Both the position numbers and the translations under genes were made by a program. A stretch of 34,544 nucleotides of DNA from an uncultured Planctomycetales bacterium (lineage in GTDB: Bacteria > 4484-113 > JAFGCY01), in assembly GCA_964465955.1 (NCBI GenBank), contig CAYXMN010000002.1, positions 1-34,544 of the forward strand, read 5' to 3'. Below, piece after piece: positions 1,438 through 22,983 of the stretch (its first letter is position 1; each line of letters opens with the position of its first letter). Under the pieces are notes generated by a model. It did no database searches and was not told the origin of the DNA. It saw nothing but the letters and a program-made list of their open reading frames with translations.

Positions 1438-1630
1438 CAGAAGCTAAGATTGCCGGCCGGTCTCCTGGCTCAGCGTCAACGGGCCGCCCCGCCTTCCCAG
1501 GCGTACGTTCGCCCAGTGGCATCGTGGGGAGCTCTCAGCTTTACAGTGGCTGGTACCGCGGCGGGTTCGCACCGCCTTCCCAAATCCGGCAGCGCTAGTG
1601 TACCATGTGCTTATCCTGGCTCGGCCCCCG
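1438..1630 (-). promoter_or_regulatory. cobalamin (B12) riboswitch in the leader of the 1..1427 lipoprotein gene
   Basis: On the minus strand, GGGAAGGCGGTGCGAACCCGCCGCGGTACCAGCCACTGTAA (complement of 1541-1581) matches the conserved cobalamin-riboswitch core (GGGAA..GGTG.GAA.CC...GC.G..CC.GCCACTG). AGCCAGGAGACCGGCC (complement of 1455-1470) matches the B12 box. It ends about 15 nt before the GGAG/ATG of the downstream gene. Confidence 0.8.
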
Positions 1631-1981: not shown

Positions 1982-2200
1982 CGCTGCCGGAAAACGAACC
2001 AGCTGCAGGGGAGCTTGAGCGGCTGGGAGGGTAGGCCGGAACACCAAAGAGAGAGTGTGCCGGTGCTGGGTTTGGAAGCAGCTTTACTTTATCTAGGCAG
2101 GGTGAATCGTGGTAAGCGTTAGAGGGATGCATTGTGGCCATTACCTGTCGCCGGTGCGCGGAGGGTGGCCGGCAGGTCAACGACCAGGAGGGTTGAACTA

Positions 2201-3640
2201 ATGGCGGTGCCGCGTGAAGTGCGGCCGGTGTTGGAGCGAACACCGCCGCAAAATGTGGAGCTGGAGCAGTGCGTGCTGGGCGCCGTGATGATCGAACCCA
2301 AGGACGCCTTCCCCGCTGTTAGCGATGTGCTGTCGCCGGACAGCTTCTACCTGGATGGGCATGGGCTCATCTTTGAACTGATGGGCGAGCTGTATTACCG
2401 CGGCATCCCGCCGGACAGCATTGCCGTGCTGGATGAGCTGCGCAGCCGCGGGCAGTTGGAGCGCGTCGGCGGCTCGGCTTACGTGATGGCGCTGCTCAAC
2501 CAGGTCGCCACCGCGGCGAACGTGGAATATCACGCCAAGAAGGTGGCGGAAAAGGCGCATTTGCGCAGCCTGATCCGCGCCTGCACGCAGACGATTGAGG
2601 AATGCTACCGCCAGGAATTGCCGCTGGAGCAAGTGCTGGACCAGGCGGAAAGCAGTATCCTGCAGCTCTCCACGCATTCGGCGGGCCGCGAGTTCATGCC
2701 GATCGCGGATGTGCTGCAGGGCTACTGGGAGAAGCTTGACGAGCGCGATCAGCAACTGCGTGAACGGCGCCTGGCCGGCGAGGCTAATCCGCGTATCGCC
2801 AGCGGCCTGCCCACCGGCTTCACCGACCTCGACATCATGACCGGCGGCCTGCGCGCCAGCGAACTGACCATCATCGCCGCGCGGCCCAGCATGGGCAAAA
2901 CCGCGCTGGCGCTGAACATGATGCACAACGTGGCGGTGAAACACCGCATCCCCTGCGCGCTGTTCAGCCTGGAAATGGGGGCACAGCAGCTCGCCGAACG
3001 CATGCTGTGCATGGGGACCAAGTCTTGGGACAACCAGCGGCTGATGGGCGTTTCGTCCAACCGCCTGCAAAACCCGGACCTGTCCGACCGCGAATGGAAC
3101 TTGCTCACGCAATCGTATGAGAACCTGGTGCAAGCCCCGATCTATATTGACGACTCCAGCCTGCTGTCCGCGCAGATGCTTAAAAGCAAGGCGCGCCGCA
3201 TGTACTCGCACCACAAAGTGCAGCTCATCATCGTGGACTACCTGCAACTGATGAGCGGCGGCAACAGCGAGAACCGCGTGCAGGAAGTCAGCGAGATCAG
3301 CCGCGGCCTGAAGCAGATCTCGCGCGAGCTGAAGATTCCGGTCGTCGCCCTCAGCCAGCTCAGCCGCCAGGTGGAGAGCCGCCAGAGCAAGAAGCCGCAG
3401 TTGTCCGACCTGCGCGAGAGCGGCGCTATTGAACAAGACGCCGACGTGGTGATGTTCATCCACCGCCCGGACTACTACGAGGACAAACAGCCGGTGCGCC
3501 AGTCGGACGGCAGCTACGATCAATACACCCTGCCGGAGGCCCAGCTGATCGTGGCCAAGAACCGCAACGGCCCGACCGGCACGGCGGAGATGTACTTCTA
3601 TCCTGAGATCACGCGGTTCCTCGACAAGGCTGGCCGCTAA
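2201..3640 (+). CDS. dnaB: replicative DNA helicase DnaB
   Basis: PPQNVELEQCVLGAVM N-terminal domain, Walker A (ARPSMGKTALALN), IIVDYLQLM and SQLSR motifs. AGGAGGG lies upstream of ATG 2201. The track's 2132 start adds an implausible Arg-rich extension. Confidence 0.95.
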   Translation: MAVPREVRPVLERTPPQNVELEQCVLGAVMIEPKDAFPAVSDVLSPDSFYLDGHGLIFELMGELYYRGIPPDSIAVLDELRSRGQLERVGGSAYVMALLNQVATAANVEYHAKKVAEKAHLRSLIRACTQTIEECYRQELPLEQVLDQAESSILQLSTHSAGREFMPIADVLQGYWEKLDERDQQLRERRLAGEANPRIASGLPTGFTDLDIMTGGLRASELTIIAARPSMGKTALALNMMHNVAVKHRIPCALFSLEMGAQQLAERMLCMGTKSWDNQRLMGVSSNRLQNPDLSDREWNLLTQSYENLVQAPIYIDDSSLLSAQMLKSKARRMYSHHKVQLIIVDYLQLMSGGNSENRVQEVSEISRGLKQISRELKIPVVALSQLSRQVESRQSKKPQLSDLRESGAIEQDADVVMFIHRPDYYEDKQPVRQSDGSYDQYTLPEAQLIVAKNRNGPTGTAEMYFYPEITRFLDKAGR

Positions 3641-5040: not shown

Positions 5041-5136
5041 GCGGTGAGGCTTGAGGTTTGGCGTCGTAATTAAGAGCGACTGGTTCAGTAAAGGAAAGAC
5101 CAATGGCAGGCAGGCGAATGCATGACGAAATCCGTG

Positions 5137-5160
5137 AAAAAAAGCCCCCCGTGGGGGGGC
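5137..5160 (-). terminator. strong intrinsic terminator oriented for the minus strand (orphan)
   Basis: Minus-strand sequence is GCCCCCC-cac-GGGGGGC followed by TTTTTTT. No annotated minus-strand gene lies upstream of it. Confidence 0.6.
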
Positions 5161-5470
5161 ATCTAGGGATGGGTAGGAGGATAATCAGTTTTTACCTGGA
5201 GGAGGGGCTGGGGCTGTTTTCTACTTCTACATTTCCTCCAGGACGTATATATATTTCCTTAGAAGTTTCAAGAAAGTTTCAACTTAGCCTGAAGAATATT
5301 CCAATGCGCTAGGTTTGAGCAAAGTTTTACCTGTGCGACCTTGGATTGCCTTATGGCATATATCCAGTTGAATGCCGGCGCATTGCTGCTAGCGTTAGTC
5401 CCAGTCAAGGTTCGCGGAGATAAGCTAGAGTTTGGATCCAACATATTGTTGTTTCCATCCGCGCAAAAAA

Positions 5471-5647
5471 GAGGCGGGCTTGAGCGACGAGGACTGCCCG
5501 GCGTCGAAAGACCGGTTGTTCGGCGAAGGCTGCAGCGCGGCCATAGGCGGCGAGGTCAGCCTGGATGTGCTGGCCGAGGGCTTCGAGAACAAGGACGCCA
5601 GCCCGGACGGAAGTGCGGGGGAAGGCGGAGCCGCAGGCGGCCAATAG
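5471..5647 (+). pseudogene. GC3-rich coding remnant (about 58 C-terminal codons of an unidentified gene)
   Basis: This frame (..EAGLSDEDCPASKDRLFGEGCSAAIGGEVSLDVLAEGFENKDASPDGSAGEGGAAGGQ*) has the strong G/C third-position bias of native genes. It is embedded in AT-rich DNA and lacks a credible start or RBS. Confidence 0.25.
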
Positions 5648-5656
5648 CCAACAGCT

Positions 5657-5664
5657 TGTATAAT
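5657..5664 (+). promoter_or_regulatory. extended -10 element TGTATAAT upstream of mrr
   Basis: TGnTATAAT-type element 27 nt upstream of the mrr ATG. Confidence 0.4.
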
Positions 5665-5690
5665 ACGGGTAACCATGTTGGGGGCTGTGA

Positions 5691-6596
5691 ATGGCGATAC
5701 CCGGTTACCAAAGCATCATGTTACCTTTGTTGCGCTTAACCGGCGACGGTGTGACCCGGCAGCTGCGTGATGCAATCGAACAACTCGCCAAAGAATTTGG
5801 ACTGACTGAAGAGGAACGCGGGGAGTTGCTACCCAGCGGACATCAAAGCACATTCGATAACCGCGTGGGCTGGGCCAGGACATATCTAAAGAAAGCTGGT
5901 TTGGTTGAGATGCCGAAGCGTGGGTACATCCAGATCACCCTGCGAGGCAAGACTACTCTTGATGAGAAACCAACAGAGATCAATGAAAAATACCTTCGGC
6001 AGTTTCCGGAGTTTGTTGACTTCAAGACTAGCAAACGTACAGTTGATGAGGAAACAGATTGCACTTTGTCGACCCAAAAGCAAACTCCTGAAGAACAGCT
6101 TGAGCTAGCACACCAAGTCCTGCGTGCTGAGTTGATCGATGAGCTGACCGCCGCGATCAAAGCCTGCTCCCCCAAGTTTTTCGAGCAACTTGTAGTTGAC
6201 TTGCTAGTAAAAATGGGTTACGGCGGATCACTGCGCGAGGCAGGCCAGGCCATTGGCAGATCTGGTGACGAAGGCATTGATGGCATCATTAAGGAAGACC
6301 GGCTGGGTCTCGATATCATCTATCTGCAAGCTAAGCGTTGGGAGAACGTTATCGGTAGGCCGGAGATTCAGAAATTCGCCGGGGCGCTGCAAGGCCAGCG
6401 TGCGCGCAAGGGAGTTTTCATAACAACATCCTCGTTCACAAGAGAAGCTAGGGAGTATGTTTCACTGATCGAGACAAAGATCATCTTGATCGATGGCAGC
6501 GATCTCGCTGAATACATGATCGATAACGGCGTGGGTGTGACCACCCACAGAGTATTTGAAGTGAAACTGATTGATAACGACTATTTTGAGGAGTAA
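5691..6596 (+). CDS. mrr: Mrr-family type IV (modification-dependent) restriction endonuclease
   Basis: N-terminal winged-helix Mrr_N-like region (MLPLLRL..GWARTYLKKAGL) plus the Mrr catalytic core (GDEGIDGII...LQAKRW...GVFITTSSFT). Confidence 0.9.
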   Translation: MAIPGYQSIMLPLLRLTGDGVTRQLRDAIEQLAKEFGLTEEERGELLPSGHQSTFDNRVGWARTYLKKAGLVEMPKRGYIQITLRGKTTLDEKPTEINEKYLRQFPEFVDFKTSKRTVDEETDCTLSTQKQTPEEQLELAHQVLRAELIDELTAAIKACSPKFFEQLVVDLLVKMGYGGSLREAGQAIGRSGDEGIDGIIKEDRLGLDIIYLQAKRWENVIGRPEIQKFAGALQGQRARKGVFITTSSFTREAREYVSLIETKIILIDGSDLAEYMIDNGVGVTTHRVFEVKLIDNDYFEE

Positions 6597-6610
6597 CTCT
6601 AGCTAGGGGA

Positions 6611-7579
6611 ATGATCATGAAGCAGTGGGTTGTCTTGGTGCTCGCTAGCCTATTTCTGCTGCTTGCGCTGCCTGCATTCGCCTATGTCCCGCATACCGGC
6701 GACCGCGCCGCACCGCTGAGCGGCCGCGACCTCAAGACCGACAGCGAGCTGAGCCTGGAAGACCTGCGCGGCAAGTGGGTGCTGTTGGACTTCTGGCATA
6801 TGTACTGCCCGTCCTGCCTGCGCGATCTGCCCGGTGTCTGCACGGCAGCCAAGCCGTACATGGCGGCAGGCGCGCTTGACGTTGTCCTGGTCAGCCTCGA
6901 TCAACCTGAGACAGCGGCAGCGATGAAGGAGTTCGTGGCCAGCCTGCCAATCGAACCGCATGTGATCTACTCAGGCGGCGGCCCGCTGCCCATCGGCCCG
7001 CCTGTGCTAGTCGCACCCGACTGGGACTCCTATGCGCCACAAGCCACGGAATGGGGCGTCTCCGGTGTTCCGGCATCATACCTGATCACACCAGACGGCA
7101 CCATCGCCGCCAAGCGCATCCGCCGGGATAACGTGGATGACTTGCTAGATTATTTCCTCGGACGAGGCGCGGCTTACGCGCCAATCGCGCTCCGCACGAG
7201 CGTTAGTTACAGCGATGACGCGCAAGTCAATGTCATGATCGAAGCAGCCAGCGCCAGCCACGCCCCGTTGCAAGCGCGGATCACCTATCGCCTGGAACGT
7301 GTGGCGTATAAAGAATACGAGGGCTGCCTGATCCAGGATCGCGGCACTAGAGAATATACAGACTGGGTCACGAGCGAGCTGTGCCTCATGTTCAGCGAGT
7401 TCAGCGACGCGGTGCAGCCGTGCTTGATTGATGCCAGCGGCTACCAAGGCCTGCAATACCGCGTTGAGGTGCTGCTGCCAGGCAGCGGGCGCTATAAGGA
7501 TGGTGCGGGCTTGTGGCTACGGCAATACGGGGACCTGGACTTTGCACTAGACTGGCTGGGCGGCGAGTCCGCGAATTAG
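6611..7579 (+). CDS. secreted TlpA/redoxin-family thiol-disulfide oxidoreductase with an unknown C-terminal domain of about 170 aa
   Basis: Signal peptide (LLLALPAFA). Thioredoxin-fold motif KWVLLDFWHMYCPSCLRDLP. GVPASYLITPDGTI cis-Pro loop region. Confidence 0.8.
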   Translation: MIMKQWVVLVLASLFLLLALPAFAYVPHTGDRAAPLSGRDLKTDSELSLEDLRGKWVLLDFWHMYCPSCLRDLPGVCTAAKPYMAAGALDVVLVSLDQPETAAAMKEFVASLPIEPHVIYSGGGPLPIGPPVLVAPDWDSYAPQATEWGVSGVPASYLITPDGTIAAKRIRRDNVDDLLDYFLGRGAAYAPIALRTSVSYSDDAQVNVMIEAASASHAPLQARITYRLERVAYKEYEGCLIQDRGTREYTDWVTSELCLMFSEFSDAVQPCLIDASGYQGLQYRVEVLLPGSGRYKDGAGLWLRQYGDLDFALDWLGGESAN

Positions 7580-7680
7580 CCGCGGGGGCGCCAGCGCCAC
7601 CACTCGCCGCAGCGTAAGCTAGCAGTTGCGCTTGCTGCGGAAATAGTCATGGGCAGCATCATCCTCGCGGATTCCCGCAG

Positions 7681-7716
7681 AAAAAAGGGGCGAAGCATTA
7701 GCTCCGCCCCTGAGTT
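7681..7716 (-). terminator. intrinsic terminator after the aldehyde dehydrogenase gene (possibly bidirectional)
   Basis: Hairpin GGGGCGAAGC-ATTA-GCTCCGCCCC (7687-7710). It is flanked by A6 on the plus strand, which is a U-run for the minus transcript, and by GAGTTTTCT on the other side. Confidence 0.6.
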
Positions 7717-11405: not shown

Positions 11406-12449
11406 ATGCCTGACGCCTTGGCCCCGCCGGATGGCGGCGAACCACGCTATAGCCGCATGCTGCGCTACGCCCCGCTGGGCGGCGTCTTGCCGCGCTGGCA
11501 GGCGAGCTGCGCCGCCGTGGCCGGCCTCGGCGGATTGGGCGGCGGACTGGTGTTGCAGCTTGCGCGGCTGGGCGTCCGGCGGCTGGTGCTGATCGATCAC
11601 GAAACCGCCGCGCCGGAAAATCTTGGGCACCAAGCGCTGTTCACGGAGCAGCACGCCCGCGAACGCTGGCCCAAAGCCGAGGCGGCGGCGGCGCAGGTGC
11701 GCGCGGTAAACAGCTCGGTTGATGCGGTCGCGCTGGCCGCCAACCTGAACCATCGCACGGCGCGCGAGTTGCTCGCCGGCGCGGACCTCATCTTCGACGG
11801 CCTCGACAACTATGCGGCGCGCTTCCTGCTCAACGATTATGCGGTGGCGGCCGGCGTGCCGTACTTCCATGCCGGGGTCGTGCGCGGCGAGCTGAGCGCG
11901 AAGGCGGTCGTGCCCGGCGTGACGGGCTGCCTGCGCTGCCTGCTCGACGGCCCGCCCCCCGCGGGCAGCGTGCCCACCTGCGCGGCGGCAGGCGTGTTCC
12001 CGCCGTTGCTCGGGGTGGCCAACGCGCTGCAACTCGATCTGGCCAGCCGCTATCTGGCCGGGAACCTCACCGCCGCGGACGATGTGCTCTACAGCCTGGC
12101 CTTGCCGGACTGGACGCTACGCCAGCTTAAACTGGGCGGCGCCGTGGCGGATTGCCCCTGCTGCGGCCAGCGCCGGTTCGCTTACCTCGACGGCTTGGCG
12201 GGGGAGGCGGGCCAGGCCGGCTGCGCCCCCGGAAGCGTGAGCGGCGAACTGGCCGGCGGGATTGACTTAAGCCGCGCCAGCGCTGTGCTGGAGGCGGCAG
12301 GGCTGTGCGTCCGGCGCAATAGGTTTTGCCTTGTGGTTGAACAAGACGGGCAGGCCTGGACTCTCTTCCCGAGCGGGAAGATTATCCAAACTGGCAGTGG
12401 AGACGCCGTTGTATTGAATAAGTTTGTTGCATCATACTTGGGGGTATGA
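11406..12449 (+). CDS. ThiF/MoeB/HesA-family E1-like adenylyltransferase with a C-terminal extension
   Basis: Rossmann motif VAGLGGLGGGLVLQLARLGVRRLVLIDHE, FDGLDNYAARFLLND, and two CxxC pairs (GCLRC, CPCCG). The N-terminal 139 codons of the track ORF overlap the glsB-like gene on the opposite strand and are rejected. Confidence 0.85.
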   Translation: MPDALAPPDGGEPRYSRMLRYAPLGGVLPRWQASCAAVAGLGGLGGGLVLQLARLGVRRLVLIDHETAAPENLGHQALFTEQHARERWPKAEAAAAQVRAVNSSVDAVALAANLNHRTARELLAGADLIFDGLDNYAARFLLNDYAVAAGVPYFHAGVVRGELSAKAVVPGVTGCLRCLLDGPPPAGSVPTCAAAGVFPPLLGVANALQLDLASRYLAGNLTAADDVLYSLALPDWTLRQLKLGGAVADCPCCGQRRFAYLDGLAGEAGQAGCAPGSVSGELAGGIDLSRASAVLEAAGLCVRRNRFCLVVEQDGQAWTLFPSGKIIQTGSGDAVVLNKFVASYLGV

Positions 12450-12850
12450 AAGTCATGCTGCGATTGATCACGCTTGGATTATTACTCACAGCGCTCACGC
12501 TGGGCCTGAGCCTGCTCGCCGGCTGCCCCGGCAATCCTGACGCGGATAAGACCGTGGCGGAAGCGGCGGAAGTGCCAGGCCTGGAGCAGGCGGTCATCGC
12601 CAAGGACCGCGCCATCGAGTCGGCGATCACGATGAGCTGGGCCGCCGACGTGGAGCTGCTGCAGGAGCAGCTCGCGGTGGAGGAGGTGCGCGCGGGCAAG
12701 GTGCGCATCACCGGCATCGTCAGCCGCCCGGAGCTGAAGGACCGCGCGGAAAGCATCGCGAAAAACCAGGAAGGCGTGGTGGACGTGGTGTCCACAATCA
12801 CGGTGGACGAAACGCTGAAGGACAAGCGCATCAACATGGACGAGCTTTAA
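12446..12850 (+). CDS. BON-domain lipoprotein
   Basis: Lipobox LLAGC. BON-like segment VRITGIVSRPELKDRAESIAKNQEGVVDVVSTITV. The start overlaps the ThiF stop (ATGA), which implies translational coupling. Confidence 0.8.
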   Translation: MKVMLRLITLGLLLTALTLGLSLLAGCPGNPDADKTVAEAAEVPGLEQAVIAKDRAIESAITMSWAADVELLQEQLAVEEVRAGKVRITGIVSRPELKDRAESIAKNQEGVVDVVSTITVDETLKDKRINMDEL

Positions 12851-12928
12851 TCCGCAGCGTCCGGGCCGTTGCGATAATCCCGCGTGCCGCGCTGTAGAAT
12901 ACCCGTACCAGTATTCACGGGAGACAAC

Positions 12929-13507
12929 ATGCACAAGCACGCCCTGGCCCTCGTTCTCGCGCTGGCCGCGCTAGCTCTCGCCGGCTGCCCGGCGTCCAAG
13001 CCTGCGGACGGCACCGCCGCGGACACGCCGCTGGCCCAGGGCCAGCCGCCCGCGGCCCGAACCCAGACGCCAGCGCCTGCCACAGAGATCCCGCAGCCCT
13101 CGGCGGCGAACGTGAAACCAGCGCAGGACTTTGAATACACCATGTTCGACGGCACCCCGCATAAGCTCAGCGACAACTTCGGCAAGCCGACGGTGGTGAA
13201 CTTCTGGGCCGACTGGTGCCCGCCTTGCGTGGGCGAGCTGCCCCATTTCGAGGAAGCGTGGCAGGCCAAAGGCGGCCAGTTCAACCTGGTGGCGATCGCG
13301 GTGAGCAGCGCCAAGGATCCGCGCGGCTATGTCGCGGAGCAAGGCTACACCATGCCCTTCGCCGTGGACGGTAACGGCGCTTCCACCTACAGCGTCACAG
13401 GCATCCCGGTGACGCTGTTCATCGACCGTGACGGCAATGTGGTGGAGCAGGTTGTCGGCGGCATGGACAAAGCCACCTTCGAGACGAACCTGGCGAAGAT
13501 TCTTTAG
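12929..13507 (+). CDS. TlpA/ResA-family thiol-disulfide oxidoreductase lipoprotein
   Basis: Lipobox LALAGC. KPTVVNFWADWCPPCVGELP active site. GIPVTLFIDRDGNVV. GGGAGA RBS precedes ATG 12929. Confidence 0.85.
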   Translation: MHKHALALVLALAALALAGCPASKPADGTAADTPLAQGQPPAARTQTPAPATEIPQPSAANVKPAQDFEYTMFDGTPHKLSDNFGKPTVVNFWADWCPPCVGELPHFEEAWQAKGGQFNLVAIAVSSAKDPRGYVAEQGYTMPFAVDGNGASTYSVTGIPVTLFIDRDGNVVEQVVGGMDKATFETNLAKIL

Positions 13508-13618
13508 CCGGAGGCAGAGGGAGACCGCGCCAGCTTCGGATTAGGGATTTTGTGCTTGATTTTCGGATAGATATACCCGATAGTGTATCTGGTTCGTATC
13601 GGCGCTGAGGAGGACGGC

Positions 13619-14104
13619 ATGGCGCGGTTCGCGATGATTGCGGTATGGGCGGCGGCAGTGGCGCTGCTCGCCGGCTGTCCCGGCGGCGGGGGCGGCGGCA
13701 GCCTGGGGACGGCCAAGGACTTCAACTACGCCAAATATGACGGCGGCCAGGGCAAGCTGTCGGATCACGCGGGCAGGGTCACGGTGGTTAACTTCTGGGC
13801 CGTGTGGTGAGGCTCATGCGTGCAGGAGTTGCCTGCGCTCCAGCAAGTCTATGAGCAATATGCGGGGCGGATCGACATGCTGGCCGTGGCGGTCGACGAA
13901 AGCGGCGATCCGCAGAAATACTTCGCCGACAACAACTTCACCATCCCGCTCGTCAAAGACGTGGACGGGTCAGATGTGTACAGCGTGCGCGGCATCCCCC
14001 GGACCTTGATCATCGATCAACAGGGCGACCTGGCCCAGGAATTCACCGGCGGCATCTCGTCCGCCGAACTGGAGATCGCAATCAAGGGCCTGCTCAAGCC
14101 TTAG
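13619..14104 (+). CDS. TlpA-like lipoprotein with an in-frame TGA (13808-13810) at the CxxC nucleophile position; probable selenoprotein (UxxC)
   Basis: Track ORFs 13583..13810 and 13820..14104 are in the same frame. The junction reads NFWAVW-TGA-GSCVQELPAL and aligns with NFWADW-C-PPCVGELPHF of the adjacent paralog. Lipobox LLAGC. GAGGAGGA RBS precedes ATG 13619. Confidence 0.7.
13818..13838 (+). promoter_or_regulatory. SECIS-like hairpin 7 nt downstream of the TGA
   Basis: GCG-(UG bulge)-CAGG / loop AGUUG / CCUG-CGC. Its position and bulged architecture resemble bacterial SECIS elements. Confidence 0.5.
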
Positions 14105-14110
14105 CCCGCG

Positions 14111-14677
14111 CTAATTCAGCAGCTTAAAGCTCTGCAGCACCGGTGCGCCATACTCGCTGACGGCGTCGTCAATCGGCCGCAAGTAGTACATGCTGATGGT
14201 GTAGATCTTCGCGCCGGCGTAGGTGCTGAACACGGAGTAATACACTGGGCTCTCGGCGGCGGACTTATCCTCAACCTCGATCAGGTTCCAGGTGAACTGG
14301 TCTTCCACCAGCGCTTCGTTGGAAGTGATGACGCTGTACTTCTCCGCGTCATCGCTCCAGTTGCTCAGCAGGGTGTCGCAGAACGTGGCGAACGCCGCGG
14401 CGTTGAGCGGCTGGTCCATCGTGTCCACGCGCAGCATGATCAGCGCCACCGGCGCGCCGGCCGGGCCTTGCCACATGCCGGCCACCTGCGGCTCGGCGTC
14501 CCAGCCGGGGTTGTCCGGCAGCTTCAGTTCGCCGCCCGCGGGCAGGCTCAGCGAGCAACCGAAGTTGCCAAAGTCATAGTGCTCATACTTGGTTGCTTCG
14601 TCTGCAGCCAGCGCCAGGGCGGCTGCCAGCCAAACCATCAAACCCGCCGTCAGCGCGGCGCAAATTCGCTTCGTCAT
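14111..14677 (-). CDS. secreted hypothetical protein
   Basis: Signal peptide MTKRICAALTAGLMVWLAAALALA. High GC3. No recognisable motif. Confidence 0.7.
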   Translation of the reverse strand: MTKRICAALTAGLMVWLAAALALAADEATKYEHYDFGNFGCSLSLPAGGELKLPDNPGWDAEPQVAGMWQGPAGAPVALIMLRVDTMDQPLNAAAFATFCDTLLSNWSDDAEKYSVITSNEALVEDQFTWNLIEVEDKSAAESPVYYSVFSTYAGAKIYTISMYYLRPIDDAVSEYGAPVLQSFKLLN

Positions 14678-22827: not shown

Positions 22828-22983
22828 CGCGCAGTTGCATTACACCCCGGCGCCAGGGATCTGCCGGCACCGCAACCTTCCGCTGAGTGCTGCTGCCTTC
22901 CGGCCCTGACACGGTTCACGGCGTTTGCGCGCAGCAGGCCCGGCGCGCGGGGCTTGCGTAGATTTTAGCATGGCCGGAGGCGG

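Follow-up and report, generated by a model that had tools for sequence, protein, structure and literature searches.

A predicted selenocysteine-containing TlpA-like lipoprotein gene, interrupted by an in-frame TGA, in an uncultured bacterial lineage

Positions 13619–14104 of the 34,544-nucleotide stretch of DNA analyzed here (hereafter the window) very probably form one gene, encoding a TlpA/ResA-like lipoprotein with a thioredoxin fold and with a predicted selenocysteine (Sec) as its attacking residue. An earlier note on this DNA had proposed such a protein, divided by the ORF track into two ORFs. That interpretation is supported by orthologs and more distant relatives that carry TGA at the same place, by purifying selection on the coding sequence, and by a conserved hairpin specific to the TGA-bearing genes. 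TlpA-like selenoproteins with a UxxC motif have been known since 2005, and the present gene adds another.

Layout of the interrupted gene

The two ORFs, 13583..13810 and 13820..14104, lie in one frame and are held apart by TGA followed by GGC TCA TGC. The DNA around the TGA reads GTG GTT AAC TTC TGG GCC GTG TGG TGA GGC TCA TGC GTG CAG GAG TTG CCT GCG CTC, which gives the read-through junction ...VTVVNFWAVW-[TGA]-GSC-VQELPALQQVY.... The proposed coding sequence (13619..14104, forward strand, as are all features of the gene given below) has 161 codons, the 64th of which would specify Sec, and ends in a TAG stop at 14102–14104; its limits follow the translation, the Pfam and PDB alignments across the junction and the architecture of the orthologs. 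From ATG 13619 the translation runs MARFAMIAVWAAAVALLAGC...VTVVNFWAVW*GSCVQELPALQQVY...LLKP. This ATG, which stands behind a Shine-Dalgarno-like GAGGAGGA read from the sequence at 13607..13614, is most likely the true start of the first ORF, rather than GTG 13583.

The ORF-track start GTG 13583 falls inside a promoter-like motif (13556–13587). The motif, TTGATT-N17-GATAGT at 13556..13584, is common to three close orthologs in the alignment, being kept in the window and in the related loci L001 and L082 and absent from L170 and L093, and its core, ATACCCGATAGTGTA, occurs once in the window. It matches 8 of 12 consensus positions, which is under the threshold of the promoter scan, and we regard it as a putative promoter. 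The promoter and terminator scan gave no match reaching threshold.

The N-terminus carries a predicted lipoprotein signal peptide, MARFAMIAVWAAAVALLAGC (13619..13678), with the lipobox L-A-G-C at residues 17–20 (LLAGC at residues 16–20 of the read-through product), kept as LAGC or LASC in the orthologs. The TGA at 13808..13810, the proposed Sec codon, occupies the column of the first Cys of CxxC and opens a redox motif U-G-S-C (13808..13819), whose second Cys (codon TGC or TGT) is invariant among the Sec and the Cys homologs alike. Just upstream lies a Cys paralog (12929..13507; ORF list, Pfam and alignment), a WCPPC lipoprotein that reads VVNFWADW-C-PPC-VGELPHF at the corresponding place and aligns with the read-through product at 40% identity over 132 aa, without gaps. 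The layout thus bears out the claim of the earlier note that the two ORFs share a frame and are split by TGA plus three codons. The gapless alignment with the paralog, together with 164 Cys homologs among the matches listed, agrees with its placing of the TGA at the nucleophilic Cys of CxxC. In a scan of the 34.5-kb window, 13808–13810 is the sole in-frame TGA with coding-like flanks, and scanning the window and the loci of the relatives for further genes of this kind gave nothing convincing.

Fold and family of the read-through product

Judged from profile and structure alignments, the read-through product is one thioredoxin fold of the TlpA/ResA type and not two, because the Pfam matches, the PDB alignments and the 40%-identical paralog all cover the junction. 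The Pfam families AhpC-TSA (63.2 bits, cut-off 26), Redoxin (48.3 bits, cut-off 26.6), Thioredoxin (41.8 bits, cut-off 23.5) and Thioredoxin_8 match across it, and the PDB entries 3kcm, 1st9 and 1jfu align unbroken through it over residues 32–147, with an E-value of 3e-20 for 3kcm. These alignments also uphold the suggestion that the fused product combines the LLAGC lipobox with a complete thioredoxin fold. P127 and T129 are invariant in our alignment A5, and the cis-Pro is conserved. An extracytoplasmic, membrane-anchored location of the product would fit its signal peptide and lipobox.

None of the NCBIfam models reaches its cut-off. The scores are 77 bits for ResA (NF002854, cut-off 170), 55.5 for TlpA (NF047696, cut-off 230), 35.7 for DsbE (TIGR00385, cut-off 123), 32 for WAxxUGC_long (NF041054, cut-off 300) and 16 for TUGYCR (NF053656, cut-off 100), and the UGSC family NF041046 gives no match to the read-through product. 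The protein is therefore filed at the superfamily level only, as a predicted Sec-containing TlpA-like protein.

Relatives of the gene and constraint on its coding sequence

Five further DNA sequences (L001, L082, L093, L170 and L171) have an in-frame TGA at the same column, and their protein identity to the window gene ranges from 87% down to about 32%. L001 is the DNA of a JGI metagenome protein found by public protein search, P0007, an N-terminal half that ends ...VVNFWAVW; it is 78% identical over the available length (alignment A1) and 87% identical in a local segment, and it reads TGA GGA GCT TGC GTG CAG GAG TTG CCT GCA TTC. In the public protein search the C-terminal half also turned up, as an NCBI protein of 94 aa (P0001) on a 40.8-kb contig. 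The KdsA cluster led to L082, a locus syntenic with the window on an ENA contig of 2.70 Mb (ERZ21869602, ctg94833l), whose ortholog is 65% identical, with the junction ...VVNFWAVN-TGA-GAC-VQELPAF.... The ortholog in L170, found via a conserved 188-aa neighbor, is 46% identical (...VVNFWAVW-TGA-QFC-VKELPSF...). L093, at about 33% identity (...VVNFWAVW-TGA-PYC-VQEMPAF...), came from a metagenome scan with the generic motif VVNFWA, in which the matches listed are mostly distant Cys homologs. L171, which begins TGA CCT TAC TGC GTG CAG GAG TTG CCT GCC, came from a search of a representative library with the C-terminal half. The same division into two ORFs, with 9 nt between them, is seen in the ORF layout of two contigs from JGI sample 3300075153.

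In all 164 other homologs collected among the matches listed, the TGA column holds Cys, and a scan of a collection of species-representative genomes returned Cys homologs only, at up to 41% identity. The question raised by the earlier note, whether homologs carry Cys or TGA in this column, is thus answered with both: TGA in five relatives, in a frame that has not decayed, and Cys in the 164.

A gene caller that meets an in-frame TGA yields ORFs that start just after the xxC. The representative library contains at least 15 clusters (50% identity; P0201–P0309) of 85–97-aa ORFs that begin exactly there, with starts such as VQELPAF, MQELPAF, MPAFQEVY, MPHFQEVY and LPHFNEVY. In the one short ORF that was checked (P0204, corresponding to L171), the upstream TGA is present. 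These ORFs are probably cut-off annotations of further Sec-containing genes.

The codons on both sides of the TGA are under purifying selection. Comparison of the window with L082 gives a dN/dS of about 0.16 upstream and 0.28 downstream of the TGA (pS 0.70 and 0.55, pN 0.26 and 0.23, respectively). The TGA-bearing sequences are free of frameshifts and extra stops. The TGA is followed by three codons before the next possible start; these stay in frame, and the second Cys (TGC/TGT) is invariant. The earlier note had named a shared stop followed by downstream frameshifts in close relatives as a sign of a pseudogene; the downstream frame is instead intact, with the dN/dS of 0.28. Since frame, selection and the invariant Cys are all kept, a pseudogene and a sequencing error are excluded, and the three in-frame codons together with the invariant Cys argue against two separate polypeptides.

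A SECIS-like hairpin downstream of the TGA

Immediately downstream of the TGA, the RNA is predicted to fold into a SECIS-like element (13815..13847). Its upper stem-loop, GUGCAGG-AGUUG-CCUGCGC (13820..13838), has 7 bp (13820–13826 with 13832–13838) and a 5-nt loop (13827–13831) with G at loop position 2, and the loop lies 16 nt after the UGA. Below it, RNAalifold places a 4-nt 3' bulge (13839–13842) and a lower stem (13815–13819 with 13843–13847). The earlier note had described a hairpin with a G/U-containing apical loop at 13818–13838; the hairpin and its loop are conserved, and the coordinates have to be revised to 13820–13838 for the stem and 13815–13847 for the whole element. In the consensus of the 53 nt from the TGA, the element consists of the 7-bp stem GUGCAGG/CCUGC(A/G)(U/C), the loop AG(U/A)U(G/A), the 4-nt 3' bulge and a weaker lower stem. 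Pairing over the six TGA sequences amounts to 95% in the upper helix and 70% in the lower. The whole structure is 85% paired, a value that falls to 22–50% in a control in which the 3' partners are slid by 1 to 3 columns.

Double changes preserve pairs at three positions. In the upper stem of L170 a C-G pair has become A-U (CAG to AAG, GCA to UCU), and in the lower stem of L082 a C-G pair has become U-A by a pair of synonymous substitutions (TGC to TGT, CAG to CAA). Where the window has GCG CTC in place of GCA TTC, U-A becomes U-G and G-U becomes G-C, and pairing is retained. L001, L082 and L093 fold significantly better than shuffled sequences do, with z from –2.5 to –3.5. The window gives z = –2.4 for a 26-nt core and –1.2, unexceptional on its own, for the 53 nt, and L170 and L171 have one of the seven upper pairs broken and weak energies. 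The significance of the hairpin thus derives from comparison with other sequences and not from the folding energy of the window alone.

In the register of the upper stem, the Sec genes pair at 7, 7, 7, 7, 6 and 6 of 7 positions despite their lower G+C, whereas the 164 Cys homologs among the matches listed typically pair at 2–3 of 7, with none at 7 and two reaching 6; owing to the relatedness of the six Sec sequences, this contrast does not amount to six independent events. Given the peptide VQELPA and the codon usage of the window, the codons required by the stem (GTG, CAG, CCT and GCA/GCG) have a joint P of about 0.02; CCT, a rare codon that accounts for 8.9% of Pro codons, is used by six of six Sec sequences. 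The idea that the hairpin is simply dictated by the peptide VQELPA was considered and rejected on the strength of the register control in Cys homologs and the codon choice. One Cys homolog, L050 (NFWAVWCPPCRKEMPSMG), has a similar hairpin in register (AGGAAGG-AGAUG-CCUUCCA, –9.7 kcal/mol), which could be left over from a Sec-to-Cys conversion or could be due to chance.

Rfam covers bacterial SECIS elements poorly, and its SECIS families gave no match in 13500–14200 even at E ≤ 10. The bSECISearch model of the bacterial SECIS, as quoted in a 2026 review (PMC13188914), has a loop of 3–9 nt, a stem of 4–16 bp, a UGA-to-loop spacing of 16–37 nt, a required G within the first two loop positions and a minimum free energy of at most –7.5 kcal/mol. 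The element in the window agrees with all of these constraints, with its 5-nt loop, 7 bp, AG at the start of the loop, 16-nt spacing (the minimum of the published range) and –11.8 kcal/mol. It fits a SECIS-like element, predicted from comparative folding and specific to the TGA-bearing genes. With the E. coli fdhF type of bacterial SECIS it shares an in-CDS stem-loop just 3' of the UGA, a small loop with G and then U, and values for spacing and upper stem that lie inside 16–37 nt and 4–16 bp. It departs from the consensus in standing at the minimum spacing of 16 nt and in having no Rfam match, and SelB binding is predicted here.

Alternative explanations

In SelB-independent read-through, a near-cognate tRNA (for Trp or Cys) or some other suppressor would decode the UGA in a fraction of passages, the product would contain no Sec, and the hairpin would act as a generic stimulator. 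The window holds no genes of the Sec machinery, and TGA is infrequent as a stop there (3 of 23 genes), which would be compatible with weak UGA termination. However, the UGA falls precisely on the codon of the catalytic nucleophile; a Trp there would leave the enzyme inactive, and exchange of Sec and Cys is the rule at the nucleophile in this superfamily (PMC1088965). The position and loop features of the hairpin are moreover those of a bacterial SECIS, and TGA does terminate purD and a thiF-like gene in the window. We consider such read-through unlikely. Even less probable, in our view, is a truly split gene, in which translation would stop at the TGA and restart at GTG 13820 to give a 63-aa lipopeptide and a 94-aa cytoplasmic fragment. 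This GTG is kept in six of six sequences, and in three close orthologs a GAGG that resembles a ribosome-binding site follows the TGA, 7 nt before the GTG. This arrangement (13809–13822) arises from the Gly codon that follows Sec, and it is missing in L093, L170 and L171, which read UGA CCU UAC or UGA CAG UUC at this point. The 9 nt between the ORFs hold both the frame and the invariant Cys codon, giving UxxC, and a C-terminal piece on its own would have no signal peptide and neither of the active-site residues, with the fold cut inside the active-site helix. The GAGG–GTG arrangement might nevertheless permit some re-initiation when selenium is lacking.

A nonsense mutation in one of two redundant paralogs is a possibility suggested by the functional Cys paralog next door and by the NCBI annotation, which has only the 94-aa C-terminal ORF. 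A pseudogene of this kind is, however, hard to reconcile with the recurrence of the TGA in six sequences, the most distant at about 32% identity, with their freedom from frameshifts and further stops, with the dN/dS of 0.16–0.28, or with L170, which retains the Sec gene without a neighboring Cys paralog; we give it a very small chance. Smallest of all is the chance of a sequencing or assembly error for a true TGC or TGT, or of a genome-wide reassignment of TGA. TGA is a single base away from TGC and TGT, but it recurs in independent assemblies from NCBI, JGI, ENA and Logan, the remaining genes of the window are free of TGA interruptions, and purD ends with TGA at the end of its Pfam domain. 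The genetic code is taken as standard because TGA is the normal stop of purD and of the thiF-like gene, and code reassignment was rejected on this ground. Pseudogene, sequencing error and code reassignment are thus effectively excluded.

Proposed mechanism and comparison with known selenoproteins

On the selenoprotein reading, the UGA at 13808 would not be read as a stop and Sec would be inserted in its place. In the manner of bacterial SECIS elements, the stem-loop 16 nt from the UGA would recruit SelB-GTP-Sec-tRNA(Sec). From the signal peptide and lipobox we expect export of the precursor and lipid modification at Cys20, leaving a membrane-anchored domain that faces the periplasm. By analogy with the family, the enzyme would act as a thiol-disulfide reductase in which Sec64 attacks the substrate disulfide and Cys67 resolves the selenenylsulfide, and a membrane electron carrier of the CcdA/DsbD type would re-reduce it. 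We infer Sec insertion, localization, substrate and electron donor from these features and from the family. Genes for selA, selB, selD and tRNA-Sec are absent from the 34.5-kb window and from the roughly 20-kb syntenic locus L082; neither region contains any tRNA gene, and the window contains no gene for a ccdA/dsbD-type carrier. The location of the Sec gene beside its Cys paralog is consistent with a duplication followed by Cys/Sec exchange.

The closest description among known selenoproteins is that of the "thiol-disulfide isomerase-like protein" family (cd02966, TlpA-like, UxxC), predicted from the Sargasso Sea metagenome by Zhang, Fomenko and Gladyshev in 2005 (PMC1088965) and also included in PMC13188914. 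Its likeness to the window gene is one of description and not of alignment (representative MGB1650493.1): both have the TlpA-like fold, a UxxC motif with Sec first, widespread Cys homologs and a hairpin right after the UGA, and both are known from sequence only. The window gene differs in coming from a non-marine lineage, in encoding a lipoprotein and in lying beside a Cys paralog in a conserved cluster. The 2026 review (PMC13188914) further lists Prx-like thiol:disulfide oxidoreductases, a thiol:disulfide interchange protein, Redoxin-family proteins and UGC-type TlpA selenoproteins; these share Pfam families and the logic of the redox motif with the window protein and are curated as separate groups. 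The NCBIfam families NF041054 (ResA-like WAxxUGC) and NF041046 (UGSC) are likewise Sec-containing thioredoxin folds, and WAVW-U-G-S-C resembles both names. NF041054 differs in its U-G-C motif with one spacer residue and in its 354-position profile, and by the profile searches the window protein lies outside both families. ResA from Bacillus subtilis (1st9), TlpA from Bradyrhizobium (1jfu) and the Geobacter thioredoxin-family protein 3kcm are Cys-containing extracytoplasmic reductases with the same fold, membrane anchoring, C-x-x-C-x-x-E-x-P context and cis-Pro; unlike them, the window protein would have Sec in place of the nucleophilic Cys.

The weight of the finding is modest because the class of UxxC TlpA-like selenoproteins is already established (PMC1088965; PMC13188914), and it leaves the understanding of how selenoproteins work unchanged. 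It corrects an annotation, as the public record has just a 94-aa fragment of the gene, and, should the machinery be confirmed, an uncultured bacterial lineage would be credited with the selenocysteine trait. Cys/Sec exchange in an extracytoplasmic reductase could be studied cleanly on the natural pair formed by the Sec gene and its adjacent Cys paralog. The SECIS GUGCAGG-AGUUG-CCUGCAU could act as a search key, and ORFs in the databases that start with VQELPAF or MPAFQEVY are likely to mark hidden selenoprotein genes of the same family. More tentatively, and with clear reservations, we suggest a widespread subfamily of Sec-containing TlpA-like lipoproteins that is mis-annotated as short ORFs, has a minimal SECIS within V-Q-E-L-P-A, and may form part of a conserved envelope module with a Sec/Cys reductase pair for a periplasmic substrate.

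Genomic neighborhood

Five contigs share a cluster of genes for a ThiF/MoeB-like E1, a BON-domain lipoprotein, the Cys TlpA-like protein, the Sec TlpA-like protein and a 188-aa secreted protein. It spans 11424–14677 in the window, 13537–16824 in L082 and 596–3384 in L170, where the Cys paralog is missing. The 188-aa secreted protein matches no Pfam or NCBIfam family. KDO-8-P synthase and the lipoproteins indicate a diderm envelope, as far as gene content can tell.

The 23 likely genes of the window end in TAA (10), TAG (10) and TGA (3), which is unusual for DNA of 62% G+C, and the relatives' loci L082, L163, L165, L167 and L170 are also rich in TAG. For the DnaB encoded at 2132–3640, the nearest named relatives are labeled simply "bacterium" (GCA_020440645.1, 71% identity), and next come Megasphaera and Margulisbacteria with about 47%. 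Around the dnaB homologs of relatives the dnaB–purD order is kept; the redoxin cluster is not nearby, and no orthologs were gained in this way. Between purD and an aldehyde dehydrogenase gene (5041–7700), the window has a gene for an Mrr-type restriction endonuclease (5691–6596) and one for a 322-aa AhpC/TSA-like protein with C-P-S-C (6611–7579). L082 has nothing between purD and the aldehyde dehydrogenase gene, and because this syntenic locus is without those genes, the segment looks like an insertion. Only two Rfam matches in the window are above the gathering score, a cobalamin riboswitch at 1438–1605 (reverse strand, 95 bits) and a bacterial small SRP RNA at 22848–22945 (reverse strand, 63 bits).
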